Of a stretch of 33,208 nt of DNA, positions 24,649 through 32,979 are shown piece by piece (positions within the stretch are counted from its first letter, which is position 1; every line of letters begins with the position of its first letter). The stretch is taken from IMG/VR virus record IMGVR_UViG_2579778919_000008; one strand, 5' to 3'. The stretch comes from a virus (Duplodnaviria > Heunggongvirae > Uroviricota > Caudoviricetes). Position numbers and translations under genes: made by a program. Under the pieces are notes generated by a model. That model was not told where the DNA came from and made no database searches. It worked only from the letters and a program-made list of their open reading frames with translations.

Positions 24649-25155
24649 TTATTGAGTAACATCAATTATCTCTACATCGTCACTTTCTTCAATATGCGAG
24701 GGAGGTGGGTTGTTAATTGCAAATTTACATTCCTTACCCTGTTTTATGTATGATTCACCCTGCGCATTCACAGTCTTAACATTATCAGTTTTTAATGAAG
24801 ATAGCCTTGCCATCCAATATGAGTAAGCAGTTGCTGGTAACGTAGCACAAGAGCTAAAAGGTGTAGGGTTTAAAAGAAGATTCTCCCCATACAATTTTTT
24901 CGCATCCTCATCAAGGAGGAGGAAATGACGACTCACTGCAACAACTTCAGGTGTAAGATATCCTAGGTTCTTGTACATATCAAAAACAGCAGTTGCACCC
25001 ATTAAAGTGCTCTGCGTTTCATTAAATATTCTTTTGGTTTCCTCAAGTTGATTTTTATAAGTTTCAACTGCTTTTGTATTGGGTACTGTTTTTGCTACTG
25101 CAGTAGTACTAAATACCACCAAGAAAAATGCCATATATCTCATTGCATTACACAT
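24649..25155 (-). CDS. AT-rich moron encoding a secreted/periplasmic protein of unknown function
   Basis: 168 aa with N-terminal signal peptide (FFLVVFSTTAVA-KT); markedly lower GC than flanking phage genes; start overlaps the mor stop (TAATG). Confidence 0.55.
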   Translation of the reverse strand: MCNAMRYMAFFLVVFSTTAVAKTVPNTKAVETYKNQLEETKRIFNETQSTLMGATAVFDMYKNLGYLTPEVVAVSRHFLLLDEDAKKLYGENLLLNPTPFSSCATLPATAYSYWMARLSSLKTDNVKTVNAQGESYIKQGKECKFAINNPPPSHIEESDDVEIIDVTQ

Positions 25156-25589
25156 TAGAATAATTTTCCTTGACTGTTACAACCTTTGTTTTTCTGCTGT
25201 GCAAGAAGTTCCCACGCAAAGCGATCACTGAATCCATACTTAGGGCAAAGAAAGGTCATGGCCATAAGAGAGGACGAACCCTGCTCACGCACCTCGGCGA
25301 ACTCGGCGAGAAAGCGACGATTACGTAATTCTCGAAGGGCACGATCACAGCGGGGTAAATAGAGGACTTCGCCGCCAAAATTCTTGATGAGTAATTGGGT
25401 TTTCTCATCGCCGATAGTATCGCGCAGGAGGGCTGCGCGGCTGGCCCCCATAGCGCGGAGGCCTTTACCTATCGGGAACGTGGTGCCACCAAAAGCAGAA
25501 AGAAGCTGCTCGGTCGCCGGGAAGCCTATCAGGTCAGCTATTTGTATCACTGCTGACGGCAGCAGCTCTGTTACCTGTTCCAGATTCAT
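25155..25589 (-). CDS. mor: Mor/C-family transcriptional activator
   Basis: Start at internal Met with GGGAG RBS; C-terminal signature GGEVLYLPR...RNRRFLAEF resembles the Mor/C GGxQVYIP motif. Confidence 0.65.
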   Translation of the reverse strand: MNLEQVTELLPSAVIQIADLIGFPATEQLLSAFGGTTFPIGKGLRAMGASRAALLRDTIGDEKTQLLIKNFGGEVLYLPRCDRALRELRNRRFLAEFAEVREQGSSSLMAMTFLCPKYGFSDRFAWELLAQQKNKGCNSQGKLF

Positions 25590-26010
25590 TATTACGCTCC
25601 CGTTTTTTTCGCCGACTCGCATCAATGCTGAGAGCCTGCATGAGTTTGGTTAACTGTTCTGTCGTCAACCACTCTATGTATTTGACGTGGAACATATGAT
25701 CGCACATTTTCTCGGCATAATTCCACGGACGTTTTGCATCTGCAAGTAATGCATGAATTTTAGCAAGAATTGATTCACGTGTTTTAGCAACTTTTGGACG
25801 TCGACCATGTTTTGCTGAGTAGCGAGGAAAACCCTTATCGTGCATATATTCCCTGACAGCCTGAAGCTCGTCGAGGGTGCATTTAGCGGATGATGTTTTA
25901 CCGTTGCATAAGCGAGACAACACGCTGCGGTAGGTAACATCATCCCATCCTAAATATGCCTGACCCGCTTTAATAGCCCCGATAAGGCCTCGTTTTGCTG
26001 GCGTGGACAT
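25534..26010 (-). CDS. GemA-like early regulatory protein (Mu gp16-like)
   Basis: 158 aa from internal Met with AGGAG RBS; segment KRGLIGAIKAGQAYLGWDDVTYRSVL...GKTSSAKCTLDEL resembles the GemA family by recollection; position just upstream of mor. Confidence 0.55.
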   Translation of the reverse strand: MSTPAKRGLIGAIKAGQAYLGWDDVTYRSVLSRLCNGKTSSAKCTLDELQAVREYMHDKGFPRYSAKHGRRPKVAKTRESILAKIHALLADAKRPWNYAEKMCDHMFHVKYIEWLTTEQLTKLMQALSIDASRRKKRERNNESGTGNRAAAVSSDTNS

Positions 26011-26071
26011 AATATTTCTCCTGTTGGTTGCCATTATCGCAGGCACTTTGTGAAGTGCCTGCTGTAATGAC

Positions 26072-26287
26072 TTACTTTAAAGGTTCCATTTTGCTGACGG
26101 ATATGCCACCGATTTTCCCTTCGACCCTGACAACCAGACGACCATTGCGCATATGCCAAGCTTCTGAGCGGGTTATTACGGTCTCCCGTTCGGGCATACC
26201 TGGTGTCGGGTGATACAGGAAACTGGAGCCGACAGGAAAACGCTGGTTAAATGTCTTCGCCGTCAGGTTTCTGAGCAGACTTTTCAT
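26072..26287 (-). CDS. Small protein, paralogue of 28424..28615
   Basis: 72 aa from internal Met with GGAGGA RBS; shares FNQRFPVGSSFLY motif with the other copy. Confidence 0.45.
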   Translation of the reverse strand: MKSLLRNLTAKTFNQRFPVGSSFLYHPTPGMPERETVITRSEAWHMRNGRLVVRVEGKIGGISVSKMEPLK

Positions 26288-26468
26288 CGTTCTCCTCCAT
26301 ATGTGCATCAGTTGCAATAATGCTTAATGGCCATAAGAGAAATGCGACCCAGCAATTCTGGCGGGATAAATTAGCTAATCCCACTAATCGGACCAGGATG
26401 CATGCCCAACACCAGCCAAGAGTTAAATACATCGCCAGAAATATGAGGACCAAAGCTATATCCATCAC
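26247..26468 (-). CDS. Small hydrophobic membrane protein
   Basis: 73 aa with two predicted hydrophobic helices; ATGA overlap with upstream ORF. Confidence 0.35.
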   Translation of the reverse strand: MMDIALVLIFLAMYLTLGWCWACILVRLVGLANLSRQNCWVAFLLWPLSIIATDAHMEENDEKSAQKPDGEDI

Positions 26469-26680
26469 TGAATACCCCTAAGTTTCTTGAAAGACTCAAT
26501 CGCCTTTCTCATATCAGCCTGAGTCCCCTTGTTACGAACGTTGCGGTTACTCGCATCGTAATAGTTGAATCGCAGCTTAAGAGGCACCGACAACAACTCA
26601 ACAACCTGGCTGTTATCGCGGAAGAACCAGACTCGGCGGTTTCCGTTATCCTGAAACTGGCAGCCCGTTACGCTATGCAT
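26465..26680 (-). CDS. Hypothetical small protein
   Basis: 71 aa; start overlaps the upstream NDT-like gene by 8 nt. Confidence 0.4.
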   Translation of the reverse strand: MHSVTGCQFQDNGNRRVWFFRDNSQVVELLSVPLKLRFNYYDASNRNVRNKGTQADMRKAIESFKKLRGIQ

Positions 26681-27038
26681 AACTCACCTCCGCTAATGGG
26701 TGAAGCTTACGGTGGATCGCAATCGACACACTTTCCCAGCTCTGGTAAAGGAACAGCAGGCCCAGCTCACAGGCGCGATCAAACTCTCTGGTAGCGCCGG
26801 TACTCTTTTCCCACCCGTTCAGGAGGAAAACAGCATCAGCCTGCTCAAGCATGGACAATGTAATTTGCAGGTACTGCTCATGCTGCAAGCCGTCAGGAAG
26901 AATGGCCGGATTGAGAACGGTAAAGCCGCGTTCTTCCAAGATGCGAGCCTCAGCGTTGAATTCATCACGGTTAAAGTTGTGATAACCGGTCATCGGCCCC
27001 GCTATGAAAACGACAGGTTTAAGCGGTAGTTCGCTCAT
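26673..27038 (-). CDS. Nucleoside 2-deoxyribosyltransferase-like protein (DUF4406-type)
   Basis: 121 aa; N-terminal VVFIAGPMTG followed by VLNP and ADAVFLLNGWEKSTGATRE, the pattern of NDT-like/DUF4406 proteins by recollection; GAGGAAGG RBS. Confidence 0.6.
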   Translation of the reverse strand: MSELPLKPVVFIAGPMTGYHNFNRDEFNAEARILEERGFTVLNPAILPDGLQHEQYLQITLSMLEQADAVFLLNGWEKSTGATREFDRACELGLLFLYQSWESVSIAIHRKLHPLAEVSYA

Positions 27039-27165
27039 GCTGCCTTCCTCAGCTCTACGTAAGACATTACGAATACATCGGCAGTGTAGATATCAGATCG
27101 AATATCATCGCCAGTCGCCATGAAATAGATGGCCAGCACTAATGCCATGGCATAAAACAGATATT

Positions 27166-27627
27166 TCACTTGTCTTCTCCTGTATTGCCTTTCACCAATT
27201 CCAGCAGTTCAAAATGCTCCGGGCGCATACCGTTGATACTGACCTGCACGCCACAGCACCGACACGGGTTACTAACAAACTCCAGGCCCCGTCTAGAACC
27301 TTTCAACGTTTTGATTGTTCCCTCCGTGCCAGCGGGCAATTTAGCCCAGCCATTTGCTGTTTCTCGCTTAAGAACAACGGTTGCTCCGTGCCACTCATAA
27401 AGGCGTTTGGGGTGCTTGATGGCGATTGCACGCCCTCCACCATACGGCAATGGTTTAACCAGCGCGTTTGCCCGAGCGAGCTGGACATCAAGCTCTGTAG
27501 CCAGTCGGCTGACCAGCTTTGCGATCTCGATTAAGGGGGTATCAGCATCCATTGCTGCTGCGAGTTCGTGGCCAGCTCGCACCAGTTCTCTGACTGGTGA
27601 TGTTTCCAGTTGAGGCGAGGTTTTCAT
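27166..27627 (-). CDS. Hypothetical early protein with C-terminal cysteine cluster
   Basis: 154 aa from internal Met with GGAG RBS; ATGA overlap with upstream gene; C-terminal CRCCG cluster. Confidence 0.45.
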   Translation of the reverse strand: MKTSPQLETSPVRELVRAGHELAAAMDADTPLIEIAKLVSRLATELDVQLARANALVKPLPYGGGRAIAIKHPKRLYEWHGATVVLKRETANGWAKLPAGTEGTIKTLKGSRRGLEFVSNPCRCCGVQVSINGMRPEHFELLELVKGNTGEDK

Positions 27628-28343
27628 TTTGTTACTCCGATCTGTTCGCATTTATTAGCTGAACTGCTTACCGCGTGATGCAGCTGCGCATTGCGGCCAG
27701 CCAGATACCCCTCGTTTTCCGCCTTATCCGTTCCCCTGGCTTTGCCGGGTTTACGCGGCTCCAGCTTTTTCATTCCTTCACTTAATTTCCTGCTGCGGTA
27801 GCACTCCATCAGAGTTGTCTCCGCCTCCGTGACGGCGAAATCACTGACAACGGCATAAGCACCGTTGACCCAGGCGGAGCAGAAGGTATCGGCGCGGGCA
27901 ACTTTAGTGACCTGTTTGATGTTCTTGCGTAACGTGGAGAGGTATTCACGACGGGCTTTCGCCAGTTGTTTACCCAGAACTTCGAATGAATATGCGGCGA
28001 TTTGTGGCCGTTCGTCCGGACCGTAGAACGTGATGGTCATTCTGGCCGGAGCATCCCAGTTATCCCGGCCATAACTGCTGTAAAACTTCACGCCAAATAC
28101 CCGCGATACCATCTCAGCAAGAAACGCCATGTATTCAGGCATTTTCTTTGCGTGAGATGGCGCTTTCTGGGTCGATGCTTCATTGATATCCATCAAATCA
28201 GTATCAGCCTCAGTCAGCTTGTGGGTTTCCATCAGGCGCTGGGCGCGGCTCAGCGCGAGTGCTGCTTCTTCAGCGCTGGAGTTATTACGCGCCATTGCCA
28301 GCAGTTTTTTAATACGCTGGAGATATTTCTCTTTATTTTCCAT
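27624..28343 (-). CDS. Hypothetical early protein, possibly DUF2786-like
   Basis: 239 aa; N-terminus KYLQRIKKLLAMARNNSSAEEAALALSRAQRLMETHKL resembles the DUF2786 N-terminal helix pattern by recollection; AAGGAG RBS. Confidence 0.5.
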   Translation of the reverse strand: MENKEKYLQRIKKLLAMARNNSSAEEAALALSRAQRLMETHKLTEADTDLMDINEASTQKAPSHAKKMPEYMAFLAEMVSRVFGVKFYSSYGRDNWDAPARMTITFYGPDERPQIAAYSFEVLGKQLAKARREYLSTLRKNIKQVTKVARADTFCSAWVNGAYAVVSDFAVTEAETTLMECYRSRKLSEGMKKLEPRKPGKARGTDKAENEGYLAGRNAQLHHAVSSSANKCEQIGVTK

Positions 28344-28423
28344 TACAGAACTCCTTAATTAAGGCGTAAGCCAGCCCCGACGGGTTTACGCCATATTTAA
28401 AACAGGTTTAATTAAAAGTTATT

Positions 28424-28615
28424 TCAGCCAGCAGGAATCAGCGATTTAATATTGGCGAAATAAGGTTCCTGGTTTATTTCAACTACCGATACATCGCGGC
28501 AGTCACGAGCCTGGTCAACGGTGCTGACGACCTTACCGCCACGTAAAACCGGATTTGGCTGATAAATAAAGACGCTGCCAACCGGGTATCGCTGATTGAA
28601 CTCTTTAGCTTTCAT
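28424..28615 (-). CDS. Small protein, paralogue of 26072..26287
   Basis: 63 aa from internal Met; shares FNQRYPVGSVFIY motif with the other copy. Confidence 0.45.
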   Translation of the reverse strand: MKAKEFNQRYPVGSVFIYQPNPVLRGGKVVSTVDQARDCRDVSVVEINQEPYFANIKSLIPAG

Positions 28616-28838
28616 CCGGAATCCCCCAACCACGATTCGCCGCATGAAGACAGAACTCCATTCGCGATATTGCCCAGATAGAATTGACCTCTGTTTTCGC
28701 CAGGCTGAATGCAGTTTTCCAGGCTGTTGCAGCGTTATGGAAATTGCCAACTTGCTCAGCAAGTACAGCGCTGACTGCATAAGACATAAATGGACTGCAT
28801 GGTTTACGGGCATGGGCGCGATCTACCAGAACATACAT
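28605..28838 (-). CDS. Possible small gene filling the 224-bp gap (hypothetical)
   Basis: 77-codon open frame whose ATG lies 1 nt after the upstream stop (TGATATG); no clear RBS, so uncertain. Confidence 0.3.
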   Translation of the reverse strand: MYVLVDRAHARKPCSPFMSYAVSAVLAEQVGNFHNAATAWKTAFSLAKTEVNSIWAISRMEFCLHAANRGWGIPDES

Positions 28839-28839
28839 A

Positions 28840-29490
28840 TCACACCCCCGCACCGGCAATATCGAGAGCAATCGGACGATATTCATCCGAGTCACCAACA
28901 CGTTCATACACGCGGATATAAGAACGGCTACCGACGACCTGCACCGCTTCACCGATTGCCTGCATGGCTTGCTGCCAGCGTTCATCATCAATTTCCAGGC
29001 GACGAAGTGCCAGAACGCGCCCGGTATTGATATTGCCTTCTTTGTCAGTATCAAACGCCTCATTGACCAGCGCCTTCAGCTCCGGGCGGGCACCTTCTGT
29101 CCAGTCAGCAAGACAGGTATCAATAAGCGCCTTTGCAGTCTGTATACGCTCGTCCAGGGCAATTCTGTCCTGCATGGCTCGCTGGATTTTGAAACGGCCA
29201 TCAAAGCTGTAGAGCGTGACATTACCTTTTTTACCGCCTTTGGTGGCCCCGTATTTTTCAGCCGAAAGGTCGATAAACGCCTGAATATCAGCAAAGGCGC
29301 GTGATTTCAGCTCACTCAGAGCAGAGGAAACGACAATCGCCTGCTCAACAAGTTCGCCAACGAGCTGGTCGCGATCGCGGTCGATTTCTTTAATCAGACT
29401 GACTGGCGTCAGAACGCCGCGAGCATCAGTCCAGTATCCCTCTGGAGCCTGGGTGGTAGTGTATTGTTTGATGGTGTTTTCAGTGGACAT
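28840..29490 (-). CDS. Conserved early-region protein of unknown function
   Basis: 217 aa from internal Met with GGGGAAG RBS; charged helical protein; family not recognised with certainty. Confidence 0.5.
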   Translation of the reverse strand: MSTENTIKQYTTTQAPEGYWTDARGVLTPVSLIKEIDRDRDQLVGELVEQAIVVSSALSELKSRAFADIQAFIDLSAEKYGATKGGKKGNVTLYSFDGRFKIQRAMQDRIALDERIQTAKALIDTCLADWTEGARPELKALVNEAFDTDKEGNINTGRVLALRRLEIDDERWQQAMQAIGEAVQVVGSRSYIRVYERVGDSDEYRPIALDIAGAGV

Positions 29491-29671
29491 TGGACTTCCC
29501 CTTTTTCTGGATTGCATTACGGATTTTTTCGTTAACATGGCCAGCCAGGCCATACCCCACAGTGGCTGCGACCTTCTGGGTCAGTTCACTGTCTTTTTCA
29601 TCTGGAAAAACCTGGCACTCCACACTGATGCCGCGCGGTGCATCGGTTATGCTGATTACGACTTTTGCCAC
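29480..29671 (-). CDS. Hypothetical small protein
   Basis: 63 aa with AAGGAG RBS; tightly packed after the preceding gene. Confidence 0.45.
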   Translation of the reverse strand: MAKVVISITDAPRGISVECQVFPDEKDSELTQKVAATVGYGLAGHVNEKIRNAIQKKGKSNVH

Positions 29672-29683
29672 TTATTTTCTCCT

Positions 29684-29962
29684 TCAATGAATAGATTCTG
29701 ACCAGACGACACGACAGCCGTCCTGGATGAAAAGGCCCTGGCGGTATTTACCCGATTTCCCCTGGCCATATTCGATGTAGCTGGCTTTACCGCTGGTGAG
29801 CAGGTAATCACACATGGCATGGCGCTGAATACGAATGACCGGCTGACCTTCCCGAACCACGATGCCTTTCACTTCCACGCCACGAGCCTGGAGGGAAACG
29901 ACAACAGCTTCGGTACGATACAGCGCTGAAACCAGCGTGTTATCTGATGTTAAAGTCAGCAT
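29684..29962 (-). CDS. Hypothetical early protein immediately downstream of B (kil-position)
   Basis: 92 aa; first gene after B as in Mu, but no sequence-level recognition. Confidence 0.45.
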   Translation of the reverse strand: MLTLTSDNTLVSALYRTEAVVVSLQARGVEVKGIVVREGQPVIRIQRHAMCDYLLTSGKASYIEYGQGKSGKYRQGLFIQDGCRVVWSESIH

Positions 29963-29982
29963 AAAACCCCCTTAAATCCGGA

Positions 29983-30876
29983 TTAATGGATCAGCATTTC
30001 GGCTATCTGATTGACGATATGACCGCTGACCGGAACATCATTCATTGCACTGGTACGAACTGCACCGCGCAGTAGCTTGAACAGTCGGCGGGCATTACCT
30101 TTTGATGCGTTGAACAGCGCTTTGCTCAGGTCTTCATTCAGGCCATCCGGGAGAACGCTGCTGGCGATGACGTCAATATCAGCACCCGGCAGGCTATGCC
30201 CGAGGTTGAGGGCGAAACCGACACGGCTATAGAGCTGTACGAGCTCACCGCGTTTGCCCTTGAGGTTCAGAATCAGGCGAGGCATACCAACCAGGACGAT
30301 GCCGATCCCCGTTTTGTCATGAATGCGGCGGATAGATTCCAGCGCACGCAGAGGGAGGTTCTCAGCTTCATCAATAATCAGCACGCGCCCAGAGTCGCGC
30401 AGCTTGTTGATGCAGGCTTCGCTAAGTTCATGCATATTGCCGCGGGTACTGAGCCCCAGCAGGTTGCAGAGTTCTTCCAGGATTACGCGTGCGGTGTAGC
30501 CAGGGTCGGCCTCAATCAGCAACGCATCCCGGTATTTAGAGACGTAGGCTTTGCAAATCATCGTCTTGCCCAGACCGGCTTCGCCGTAAAGCACGTTGAT
30601 ATCACCTTCGACGTGCGCCATGCGTATAACATCAACGGCTTTGCGCGTTGTTGGGGTATCAACAAATTTGACGCTGATACGTGCCGAGCGCTCTTTTTCA
30701 TGCTGACGATCGATAAAGCTACGAATATCGTTTTCCAGCGATGCAATATCGCCGTCGTATTTATTATTCAGGTACTGGCTGATTACGGCAGAGCTCTTAC
30801 CAATAGCGCGGGCGACCTGCGTCTGGTTAAGACCTTTTGCTTTCATCAGTTCGACAAGTTCATTTTTAGCTGACAT
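29983..30876 (-). CDS. B: Transposition ATPase B (MuB-like AAA+ protein)
   Basis: 297 aa; N-terminal HTH-like segment and Walker A GEAGLGKT; directly downstream of the transposase with GAGGAAG RBS. Confidence 0.85.
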   Translation of the reverse strand: MSAKNELVELMKAKGLNQTQVARAIGKSSAVISQYLNNKYDGDIASLENDIRSFIDRQHEKERSARISVKFVDTPTTRKAVDVIRMAHVEGDINVLYGEAGLGKTMICKAYVSKYRDALLIEADPGYTARVILEELCNLLGLSTRGNMHELSEACINKLRDSGRVLIIDEAENLPLRALESIRRIHDKTGIGIVLVGMPRLILNLKGKRGELVQLYSRVGFALNLGHSLPGADIDVIASSVLPDGLNEDLSKALFNASKGNARRLFKLLRGAVRTSAMNDVPVSGHIVNQIAEMLIH

Positions 30877-30921: not shown

Positions 30922-32979
30922 TCAGAAGGCCGCTTTTTTATTGCCCTGACTTTTCAGCCACTCTTCTCGCTCTGACTCGAACAGGAACACGTGTTCCCGG
31001 TCATCATTAATACGCTCGGCATCTGATGGTATTAATGCGCCGAAATCAGGGTACATATCGCTTTCTGGCAGCAGTCCTCGCGCCTCTGCTTCAATCTCTT
31101 CTCGCTGTTCGTCAATGCGCTTCAGACGACGTTGGCGGCGTTTCTCAACGGCGATATCCATCATGCTGGTTGGCAGCGCGGCACGCTTGTTGCCGTTCCA
31201 GATGGCGGTGCAGACATAAGTACCGTCCATACGGCGAACGATGACGGCGGCAGGGTCGTGAATGTCATAGGCAACACGAACCTCTTCACCATCGACCTGT
31301 ATCAGGTCAGCGCTGAAATACTGGTTGTTCATCAGGTCAATCCAGCCTCTCTGGGCCGTACGGCACATTTCCGGCATGAAGGCTTCACGAAGTTCGATAT
31401 CCGTCAGATATTCAATCTCGTCCCCCTCAGTGGCCAGGACCTCGCGACGGTACTGTGCTGGCGTCATATGAACACCATTACGCTTCGGTAACTCGCTGTG
31501 CTCATGCAGGTTGTTGTATTTGTCGACTTCCTCGGCAATGGTATCCAGCAGCATCTGCCATGACGGCAGTTTACGCAGCGCATTACGCTGTACGCTCGTG
31601 AGCTCGCGGCCATTCTCCTGAGCCTTAATCGCTGACTGGATGGCGCGACCGGTCATCCGGACATGCTCACGGTCGGCCCCGAATCCGTTGTAAGTATCAA
31701 ATTTGTTGGCGATCGCTCTCGGTATTACGGCGTTCAGGCGTTCGATAATCCCGCGAGACTGAGGTCGGCCAGGAATACTGGTCGGGTGATCAATCCCCAT
31801 GCGGGTGAAAATACCGGTGATATCAGCATCCAGCGTTTTGTTCGTTTCGCCGCCACCGTTATCCGAATAAACAAAAAGAGGTTTCCCGTGGAATTTCATG
31901 GCGTAGCGATAGGCATCCGCTACGGCGATGACGTTCTCCGAGAGCGCCAGGCTCCAGCCCACCAGGAAGCGGGTTCGTCCATCAATCACCAGCGTCAGTT
32001 CGGGCGTGAATGGGCGACCATGGACCGGATGAGCAACTTTCATATCCAGCGATTTACCATCCGCAATCCAGCAACCATTTACGGGCATCTGTGACCAGTC
32101 ACGTTTCTGGTAAACCTCAAAGGCCAGAGCCGCTGAACCGCTGATACGGCCGCGAGCGCGTTCACGTTTGGGCAATTTTTCCATCGCACGGCGAACGGCA
32201 TCATAAGACGGACAGACGGCGAGCATCGCTGGCTGTCCCGCATAAATAGCCTGCCATTCAGTCTTGAATGAACGCCACGCATCCACCAGGGAAGGGCCTG
32301 AGAGTTTCCGCCAGTGGGCGAGAAAATCAGGGAGCCACTTAATCTGTTCAGGCTTACGCGCTTTAAGATGGCCAGGGGCCAGTAAAGCAAGACGTTCGAT
32401 ACCTGGACGGGTTGAAAGGTAAACAGACAACCATTCCTGGAGTGTTCTTTCACCCACGCCACGGCGGCTGGAGCCTTTACGGGCATTCGCAATATCAGCC
32501 GCAGCCTGGATGTTCTCCGGCAGCGAACCCTTGCGCGACTCTTTGGCGATGAACTCAACCGCCGATGCGCGAGACATACCGATATCCCGAAGGCGCTCAA
32601 CCTCTGCGGCTAATAATGCACGCGCATCGGCGATCTGTTTCTGGCGTTCGGTAAGGTCGGAAACTTCACGCTCCAGCAATACCGGGCACTGCCGTAATAA
32701 CGCCAGCTCATCACGGGTCGTGGTGACTTCCCGCTTTGGTGCCGTTGGAGCAACTGAACAATCAGACTGTTTCAACACCTCGCGATAATGCCGGGCTTTG
32801 ACTATTTCACGCGCCTGTTCAGGCAGGCAGTCGATGTGGTACTCGAATGCTTTGCTGCCAGCACGTTTGCGAACCAGTTCAGGGGAGTTGCCTGCACTTT
32901 TTTTAAGGCTGTATCGCAGTCCTTGTTGTGTTGTTGGCAATCCAGGGACGCCAACTAATTCGTTAACAGTCACGAACAT
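30922..32979 (-). CDS. A: DDE transposase A (MuA-like)
   Basis: 685 aa; N-terminal DNA-binding domains and central catalytic core typical of MuA; start 2 nt after the ner stop. Confidence 0.9.
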   Translation of the reverse strand: MFVTVNELVGVPGLPTTQQGLRYSLKKSAGNSPELVRKRAGSKAFEYHIDCLPEQAREIVKARHYREVLKQSDCSVAPTAPKREVTTTRDELALLRQCPVLLEREVSDLTERQKQIADARALLAAEVERLRDIGMSRASAVEFIAKESRKGSLPENIQAAADIANARKGSSRRGVGERTLQEWLSVYLSTRPGIERLALLAPGHLKARKPEQIKWLPDFLAHWRKLSGPSLVDAWRSFKTEWQAIYAGQPAMLAVCPSYDAVRRAMEKLPKRERARGRISGSAALAFEVYQKRDWSQMPVNGCWIADGKSLDMKVAHPVHGRPFTPELTLVIDGRTRFLVGWSLALSENVIAVADAYRYAMKFHGKPLFVYSDNGGGETNKTLDADITGIFTRMGIDHPTSIPGRPQSRGIIERLNAVIPRAIANKFDTYNGFGADREHVRMTGRAIQSAIKAQENGRELTSVQRNALRKLPSWQMLLDTIAEEVDKYNNLHEHSELPKRNGVHMTPAQYRREVLATEGDEIEYLTDIELREAFMPEMCRTAQRGWIDLMNNQYFSADLIQVDGEEVRVAYDIHDPAAVIVRRMDGTYVCTAIWNGNKRAALPTSMMDIAVEKRRQRRLKRIDEQREEIEAEARGLLPESDMYPDFGALIPSDAERINDDREHVFLFESEREEWLKSQGNKKAAF

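Follow-up and report, generated by a model that had tools for sequence, protein, structure and literature searches.

The 33,208-nucleotide stretch of viral DNA deposited as IMG/VR record IMGVR_UViG_2579778919_000008 (Caudoviricetes; hereafter the window) is a nearly complete Mu-like transposable prophage of the Enterobacterales, read on the minus strand. It carries two small related genes, A (26072..26287) and B (28424..28615), in its early accessory region between the MuB-like ATPase and gemA/mor. We find that A and B are long-separated members of a single family, and propose, with a probability of roughly 45%, that they are two copies of an uncharacterised barrel domain of about 60 residues that is kept in fixed slots and acts as a protein-binding adaptor.

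Both open reading frames (ORFs) lie on the minus strand exactly where the preliminary description of this DNA had placed them, with the stop codons inside both ranges. A encodes a protein of 71 amino acids (aa) that begins MKSLLRNLTAKTFNQRFPVGSSFLYHPTPG and is recorded as MKSLLRNLTAKTFNQRFPVGSSFLYHPTPGMPERETVITRSEAWHMRNGRLVVRVEGKIGGISVSKMEPLK; its ATG at 26287 has the Shine-Dalgarno sequence GGAGGAG (26292-26298) 4 nucleotides (nt) ahead. B encodes 63 aa, begins MKAKEFNQRYPVGSVFIYQPNPVLRGG and is recorded as MKAKEFNQRYPVGSVFIYQPNPVLRGGKVVSTVDQARDCRDVSVVEINQEPYFANIKSLIPAG; its ATG at 28615 follows GGGGGA (28622-28627) at a distance of 6 nt. Ratios of nonsynonymous to synonymous substitution rates (dN/dS) against the window, calculated by the Nei-Gojobori method with dS ranging up to saturation, were 0.05-0.25 for A (36 distinct orthologous DNA versions) and 0.06-0.20 for B (15 versions). 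Because both genes have Shine-Dalgarno sites and dN/dS values well under 1, A and B are real protein-coding genes under clear purifying selection. Both are labelled 'hypothetical protein' by RefSeq in Escherichia coli FDAARGOS_1303.

The two proteins share the motif FNQR(Y/F)PVGS, as had been noted before. BLASTP aligned A and B at 42% identity over 45 aa (E=4e-12, as a single comparison), and this match stays significant once all ORF pairs of the window are corrected for. End-to-end alignment with homologues added gave 33% identity, with A10, F13, N14, G20, F23, T39, A43 and V52-V53 (A numbering) invariant. Because this alignment is full-length, the resemblance goes beyond the motif; the earlier wording, 'otherwise diverged', is too weak for a similarity that spans the whole length and fold. 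A also matches the PHROG family of B, and B that of A. The window has 596 stop-to-stop ORFs of 30 aa or more; when a hidden Markov model (HMM) of the family was run on these with filters off, A scored E=5e-27 and B E=2e-23, the next best value being 0.16; no further family copy was found among these ORFs, and the window therefore has exactly two. The significance of the alignment, which had been named as the check to make, thus holds both pairwise and by profile.

The split between A and B is old. When 145 family representatives were ranked by BLASTP bit score, B came 113th for A, with 112 others scoring better, and A came 32nd for B. A third copy, C, which is found in some related prophages, is closer to A (rank 21) and far from B in the same ranking. 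Since so many other representatives outscore the partner, the pair is not a recent in-place duplication, and a recent local tandem duplication was rejected on the rank of B for A. Judged from these sequence comparisons, the pair is an ancient duplication or the product of two separate acquisitions, that is, the co-residence of two long-separated subfamilies, much as the preliminary description had supposed. The A clade pattern, TRSEAW.LGHG..VVK(I/V)EGR.GGVS, is the main 'typical' form of the family, and the B clade pattern, VVEIN.EPYFANI.SL.P, is derived.

The family, which had not been recognised from the sequence at first, is in fact held in databases: A belongs to phrog_19503 (E=2e-35, over its whole length) and B to phrog_5591 (E=2e-28), both groups being of unknown function. 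PHROGs keeps the two apart and unannotated, whereas our alignments and models show them to be one domain family with one fold; the phrog_19503 profile has 158 positions, part of which covers a C-terminal extension missing from A. Neither protein had a match in Pfam, NCBIfam or PADLOC, and Pfam and NCBIfam contain no model of the family. A word-index search yielded close Enterobacterales homologues only, all 'hypothetical'; a joint profile run exhaustively with HMMER over 1.84 billion representatives picked up 322 clusters with E<=1e-3, of which 41 reached E<=1e-10. Outside Mu-like phages, members are encoded by, among others, Vibrio phage D93, Erwinia phages PEp14, Stean and Pavtok, Arthrobacter phage Mufasa8 and EBPR siphovirus 4, and in all cases inspected they lie within runs of small hypothetical early genes. 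The family consensus reads M(T/S)A.E(F/W)N..YP(V/I)G(T/S).(F/V).Y.P..G.....T(R)S(E)AW.LG.G..VV.(I/V).G..GGVS...L.P. Its core residues, (F/W)N, the G of YPVG, T39, A43 and VV52-53, are all present in A and B; N14 and G20 are invariant in 73 diverse members, and aromatic residues are conserved at F/W13, Y17, Y25 and W44.

AlphaFold2 modelling with the family alignment gave confident structures for both proteins, with a mean predicted local distance difference test score (pLDDT) of 92.5 and a predicted template modelling score of 0.78 for A (model md3e737255b91) and a pLDDT of 93.5 for B (m1860f047e406). The two are predicted to be alike: a short N-terminal helix bearing the A..FN motif, a YPVG turn and five strands. 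The fold class is clear from the models, in which the helix is joined to a five-stranded SH3/Tudor-like barrel. A Foldseek search of the predicted fold against the PDB gave nothing below 1e-3, and the structural matches in BFVD were uncharacterised family members (PEp14 H2DE69 and a Mufasa8 protein); the modelled fold points to no specific functional relative.

The domain is used as a module. Among the best 150 representatives, 89 stand alone, while the domain is N-terminal to an extension in 43 and C-terminal to one in 13. The extensions are unrelated to one another and comprise coiled coils, weak zinc ribbons, a PF04447 dATP/dGTP pyrophosphohydrolase and several PHROG modules of unknown function. 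A scan of about 30 fused proteins with Pfam, NCBIfam and PHROG models for partners of known function found the one PF04447 domain and weak zinc ribbons, the rest being PHROGs without a known function, and the recurrent C-terminal module of P0113 matched nothing in a search of PDB sequences. One phrog_12368-like module follows the domain in P0133 and in the C copy of locus L019 and precedes it in P0145; P0082 consists of two family domains in tandem.

A and B occupy conserved positions in related prophages. We collected 41 related loci from an E. coli prophage, three species-representative genomes and 38 IMG/VR contigs; a profile search of genome contigs with the A alignment gave 3 loci. When the window proteins were mapped onto all loci, the co-residence of the two subfamilies was kept in every related Mu-like prophage with enough sequence. 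B always lies directly after the DUF3164 gene, or after an ANR gene where one is present. In the window, the ATG of the ANR gene is 1 nt after the stop codon of the DUF3164 gene (28840..29553; Pfam PF11363, E=3e-83), and the ANR stop overlaps the B ATG by 11 nt. In ANR-containing relatives, the ANR stop overlaps the start of B by 4, 11 or 20 nt in all cases; in ANR-less relatives, the B ATG comes 1 nt past the DUF3164 stop. The DUF3164-B arrangement holds in prophages whose MuB is only 61-66% identical, among them the published Klebsiella phages ST405-OXA48phi1.1 and Kp4852-3 and 'Pseudomonas' phage VW-6B, and also in a Yersinia prophage. A, for its part, precedes the gemA start by about 60 nt wherever both could be aligned in loci found through A, the exception being locus L042 (about 1.1 kb). 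In the Yersinia prophage, which was retrieved otherwise, an A-type gene sits elsewhere in the accessory region.

Copy C marks a third slot, which is empty in the window. It is present in six relatives between the hairpin downstream of B and the DUF2786 gene (L005 4174-4389; L013 1193-1408; L014 4719-4934; L019 4580-5029; L020 3892-4107; L021 3990-4205), has the pattern MSGFIKKMTAEQFNA...TRSEAW.LGHGAVVVSVTGVSGGVDITHLKP and is 71 aa long, or 149 aa in L019, where it bears the phrog_12368-like extension at its C terminus. The hairpin itself (GGCGTAA...TTACGCC, 28363..28392, minus strand) stands in the 80-nt gap between B and the DUF2786 gene. It is conserved in 15 distinct versions, has no T-run behind it and keeps its stem in the most divergent relative (L042), where the interior differs. 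It is also an insertion point, with copy C just past it.

The position of B directly behind an ANR gene is matched by natural gene fusions. The ANR-family small regulator of the window (28605..28838, alternative start 28787, minus strand) matches NCBIfam NF033650 at E=2e-18, with 65.8 bits where the cutoff is 32, and is annotated by RefSeq in the E. coli relative L001; this neighbour alone matches the model, which leaves A and B unmatched. P0173, from a Mu-like prophage of Serratia liquefaciens or compost (L051 6001-6411), is a 136-aa protein in which an ANR domain is followed by a complete B-type domain, and it fills exactly the slot between DUF3164 and DUF2786. It occurs on 12 contigs and so is not a one-off sequencing error. 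A second fusion of ANR and a B-type domain, C-terminally truncated and likewise in this slot, is P0085 of Erwinia tracheiphila. Most discussion of ANR proteins concerns their role as virulence anti-activators in enteric pathogens; here a phage-borne ANR gene is chained to DUF3164 and B in a Mu-like early operon.

A further relative of the family lies outside phages. A profile of 73 diverse members matched, at a borderline E=0.023, residues 339-393 of PDB sequence 3G87, a 394-residue Burkholderia pseudomallei 'malonyl CoA-acyl carrier protein transacylase'. A search with this segment returned a subfamily with the pattern WN..YP(V/I)GT.V.S...TRT.A.VLFGHRAAVYM.GYNGYFDL.E, which hhalign aligned with the phage family at 97.2% probability (E=3.4e-11, 56 columns). 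Genomic context places the domain at the acyltransferase C terminus, behind an Ala/Pro-rich linker, in trans-acyltransferase (trans-AT) polyketide clusters: the genes downstream encode HMG-CoA synthase, two enoyl-CoA hydratases, an acyl carrier protein (ACP) and a ketosynthase in B. pseudomallei, and a second acyltransferase, a thioesterase, an enoyl reductase and a megasynthase on a wastewater contig. A structural paper on a trans-AT acyl hydrolase (PMC11775670) does not describe a C-terminal domain of the 3G87 type, and literature searches on Mu-like early regions and trans-AT docking turned up no account of an FN..YPVG domain. The A homologue of Klebsiella phage ST405-OXA48phi1.1 (L002 7644-7859, QBA84957.1) is labelled 'malonyl CoA-acyl carrier protein transacylase', and small stand-alone fragments in several metagenomes bear the same name. 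Because only the non-catalytic C-terminal appendage of 3G87 is homologous, this label is an annotation artefact. A FabD-like function was likewise rejected for A, which has 71 aa, no Acyl_transf_1 domain (about 300 aa) and no Pfam match.

Based on these data, we propose how the two proteins may work. A and B occupy two fixed slots of the accessory ('semi-essential') early operon in this Enterobacterales Mu-like prophage, and the domain would be a compact, non-catalytic protein-binding adaptor, acting by itself or joined to a partner module. B would most likely cooperate with the protein translated immediately ahead of it, the ANR anti-activator where present and otherwise the DUF3164 protein. 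Through direct protein-protein contact, ANR proteins bind to AraC/XylS activators and to H-NS (PMC4038620, PMC4983702, PMC5570504, PMC10148876); since this is how they work, B might help the phage to readjust the transcription of host or prophage soon after induction. A would be a second, independently specialised adaptor made just before gemA-mor. Taken together, the modularity of the domain, its charge and the ANR linkage favour, without proving, an adaptor that binds proteins and has no catalytic activity, and a functional tie between B and its upstream neighbour. The preliminary idea that such small early proteins are host-interaction factors is plausible and agrees with the position, the fusions and the ANR linkage.

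Several points weigh against this proposal. Any particular partner is a candidate only. Nucleic acids, too, are bound by SH3-like barrels, and A is unusually basic for the family (net charge +7, isoelectric point (pI) about 11). The conserved FN..YPVG, T39, A43 and VV residues may be purely structural. B occurs without ANR in many Mu-like prophages (Klebsiella type, Yersinia), so that ANR is not its obligatory partner, and the ANR-B coupling counts for little on its own because tight coupling is general in this operon. The Erwinia fusion, being C-terminally truncated, may be a pseudogene.

Among the alternatives, nucleic-acid binding survives best, and we consider it unlikely rather than far-fetched. 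A and B would then be barrels of the PAZ, KOW, Tudor or Sm type that bind RNA or DNA ends, for example those of transposition or replication intermediates, or the early transcript. The PAZ/KOW-like fold is compatible with such a role, especially for the basic A, but net charge is not conserved across the family (in the A type, mean 0.1, range -5 to +8, with a pI below 6 in 37%), and protein binding therefore fits better than general nucleic-acid binding.

It is distinctly doubtful that A and B are accessory proteins of anti-defence or superinfection control, each neutralising a different component of host immunity or of a competitor phage. This would explain the diverged copies, two to three per prophage, and the cassette-like presence or absence of C at a conserved hairpin; the genes also lie in a variable accessory early region, and members in other phages sit within arrays of small hypothetical early genes. 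However, the A and B slots show strong conservation and not variability, dN/dS indicates strong purifying and not diversifying selection, PADLOC showed no similarity to catalogued defence-related proteins, and the homologous domain of the polyketide synthase (PKS) acyltransferase has no obvious link to immunity.

We hold a more ambitious version of the adaptor proposal to be improbable as well. The family would be a portable docking domain common to phage early proteins and trans-AT acyltransferases; B would be a partner subunit of ANR (separate here, fused in Serratia), the two jointly capturing host AraC/XylS-type regulators or H-NS to control prophage silencing or host expression, and A and C would be the same scaffold retargeted.

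Very unlikely, in our view, is that the proteins are ligand-sensing or regulatory appendages of nucleotide or acyl-group metabolism that bind a small molecule or a carrier protein. P0099, in which the family domain is fused to a PF04447 dATP/dGTP pyrophosphohydrolase, and a weak BFVD structural match in a Gordonia phage protein with the same PF04447 domain name would fit, as would the homology to the C-terminal domain of malonyl-CoA:ACP-type acyltransferases and the presence of neighbours in nucleotide metabolism (DUF4406 in the window, an HD hydrolase in a Klebsiella phage). Yet P0099 is a single cluster from a 1.3-kb contig, most fusions have non-enzyme partners, and conserved polar pocket residues are not evident in the sequence. 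Finally, the idea of chance ORFs or a chance motif without function, for which only small size and missing annotation speak, is already refuted by the A-B BLASTP match (E=4e-12), dN/dS far below 1 across dozens of orthologues, the matching confident fold models and hundreds of homologue clusters.

The early region around A and B is read on the minus strand. A Mu-type transposase (30922-32979) and the MuB-like AAA ATPase (29983-30876) are followed by two small ORFs, the DUF3164 and ANR genes and B. Beyond the hairpin come a DUF2786/DUF7168 gene (27624-28343), a 161-aa protein without a Pfam family above threshold (27166-27651), a DUF4406 gene (26673-27038), a 71-aa protein (26465-26680) and a 73-aa hydrophobic, membrane-like ORF with a weak phrog_6436 match (26247-26468; 1e-5). 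A is followed by gemA of the gp16 family (25534..26046, likely real start ATG 26010; 'gp16 family protein' in RefSeq for L001, with PF06252 GemA on homologues) and mor (25155-25625), with lysis and late genes downstream of mor. A consensus scan between MuB and mor found no promoter or terminator signal above shuffle expectation, which is consistent with one early operon; the preliminary placement of A and B in a single early operon is borne out by their common strand, the early region and the lack of such a signal above background between them.

Between A and gemA lies a perfect inverted repeat, GCAGGCACTT-CACA-AAGTGCCTGC (26039..26062, minus strand), with a conserved stem and a variable loop across 21 sequence versions in relatives. 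Behind it stands TGCGATAAT, an extended -10-like sequence just upstream of the gemA ribosome-binding site. The repeat may act as an RNA hairpin or a protein-binding palindrome, or belong to a gem-type internal promoter. On the other side of A, the 3' end of the 73-aa ORF overlaps the first 41 nt of the gene; its product is 74-96% identical in close relatives and 40-52% identical in four more distant loci, and the corresponding stretch is without annotation in the RefSeq E. coli relative. The 161-aa protein has a CRCCG motif and an N-terminal segment of 50 residues that weakly matches phrog_492 (2e-6). Only some relatives carry it, and it is thus another variable accessory cassette; BLASTP (E=53) spoke against its being the unfused counterpart of the phrog_492 segment that P0121 carries as a fusion, and this reading was rejected. 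The early region (25155-30876) is also mosaic. From MuB through B, the window proteins are 97-100% identical to those of locus L024, and nearly so to those of L022, but with just 47% for ANR; from A through the GH19 endolysin they are 94-100% identical to those of L006, although for the left part the identity to L006 is only about 66-74%. Somewhere between B and A there must be a recombination junction.

The family was already catalogued in PHROGs as small phage proteins of unknown function, of which A and B are two clean members, and our result is a modest one with little to surprise a specialist. What it adds is, first, that two PHROG groups and the appendage of a trans-AT PKS acyltransferase can be unified as one predicted SH3-like domain family without a Pfam entry, so that a new domain family is definable from these alignments. 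Second, the recurrent 'malonyl CoA-ACP transacylase' misannotation of phage homologues is explained and can be corrected. Third, the two-to-three-slot arrangement conserved in Enterobacterales Mu-like prophages is new, as is the Rosetta-stone link between the B type and ANR anti-activators; the DUF3164-(ANR)-B order and the natural ANR-B fusions offer a concrete interaction hypothesis for the poorly understood accessory early region of Mu-like phages.

Among known systems, the products of the 'semi-essential' early region of phage Mu, such as Kil and GemA, are small, non-essential and thought to modulate the host. A and B belong to the same operon and the same class of small early protein but share no homology with them, and a tblastn search of 50,697 phage records with A and B did not return Mu itself. 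The SH3-like barrels offer a structural comparison: the Tudor/BAH/PWWP 'royal' domains, PAZ, the KOW domains of uL24 and NusG and the phage 812 neck protein show 5-18% identity to the family in structural alignments, with no sequence relationship by Pfam. Neither A nor B falls within the Tudor/'royal family' sequence profiles or matches a KOW or PAZ profile in Pfam, and the N-terminal helix with its FN..YPVG motif is specific to the A/B family, an addition to the barrel seen elsewhere. Another comparison is with the C-terminal domain of 3G87. Unlike the phage proteins, it forms its own subfamily (VLFGHRAAVYM.GYNGYFDL), fused to Acyl_transf_1 and found in cellular biosynthetic clusters; like them, it is an appended non-catalytic module of the same size, with WN..YP(V/I)GT, TR..A and a terminal L.E..P.
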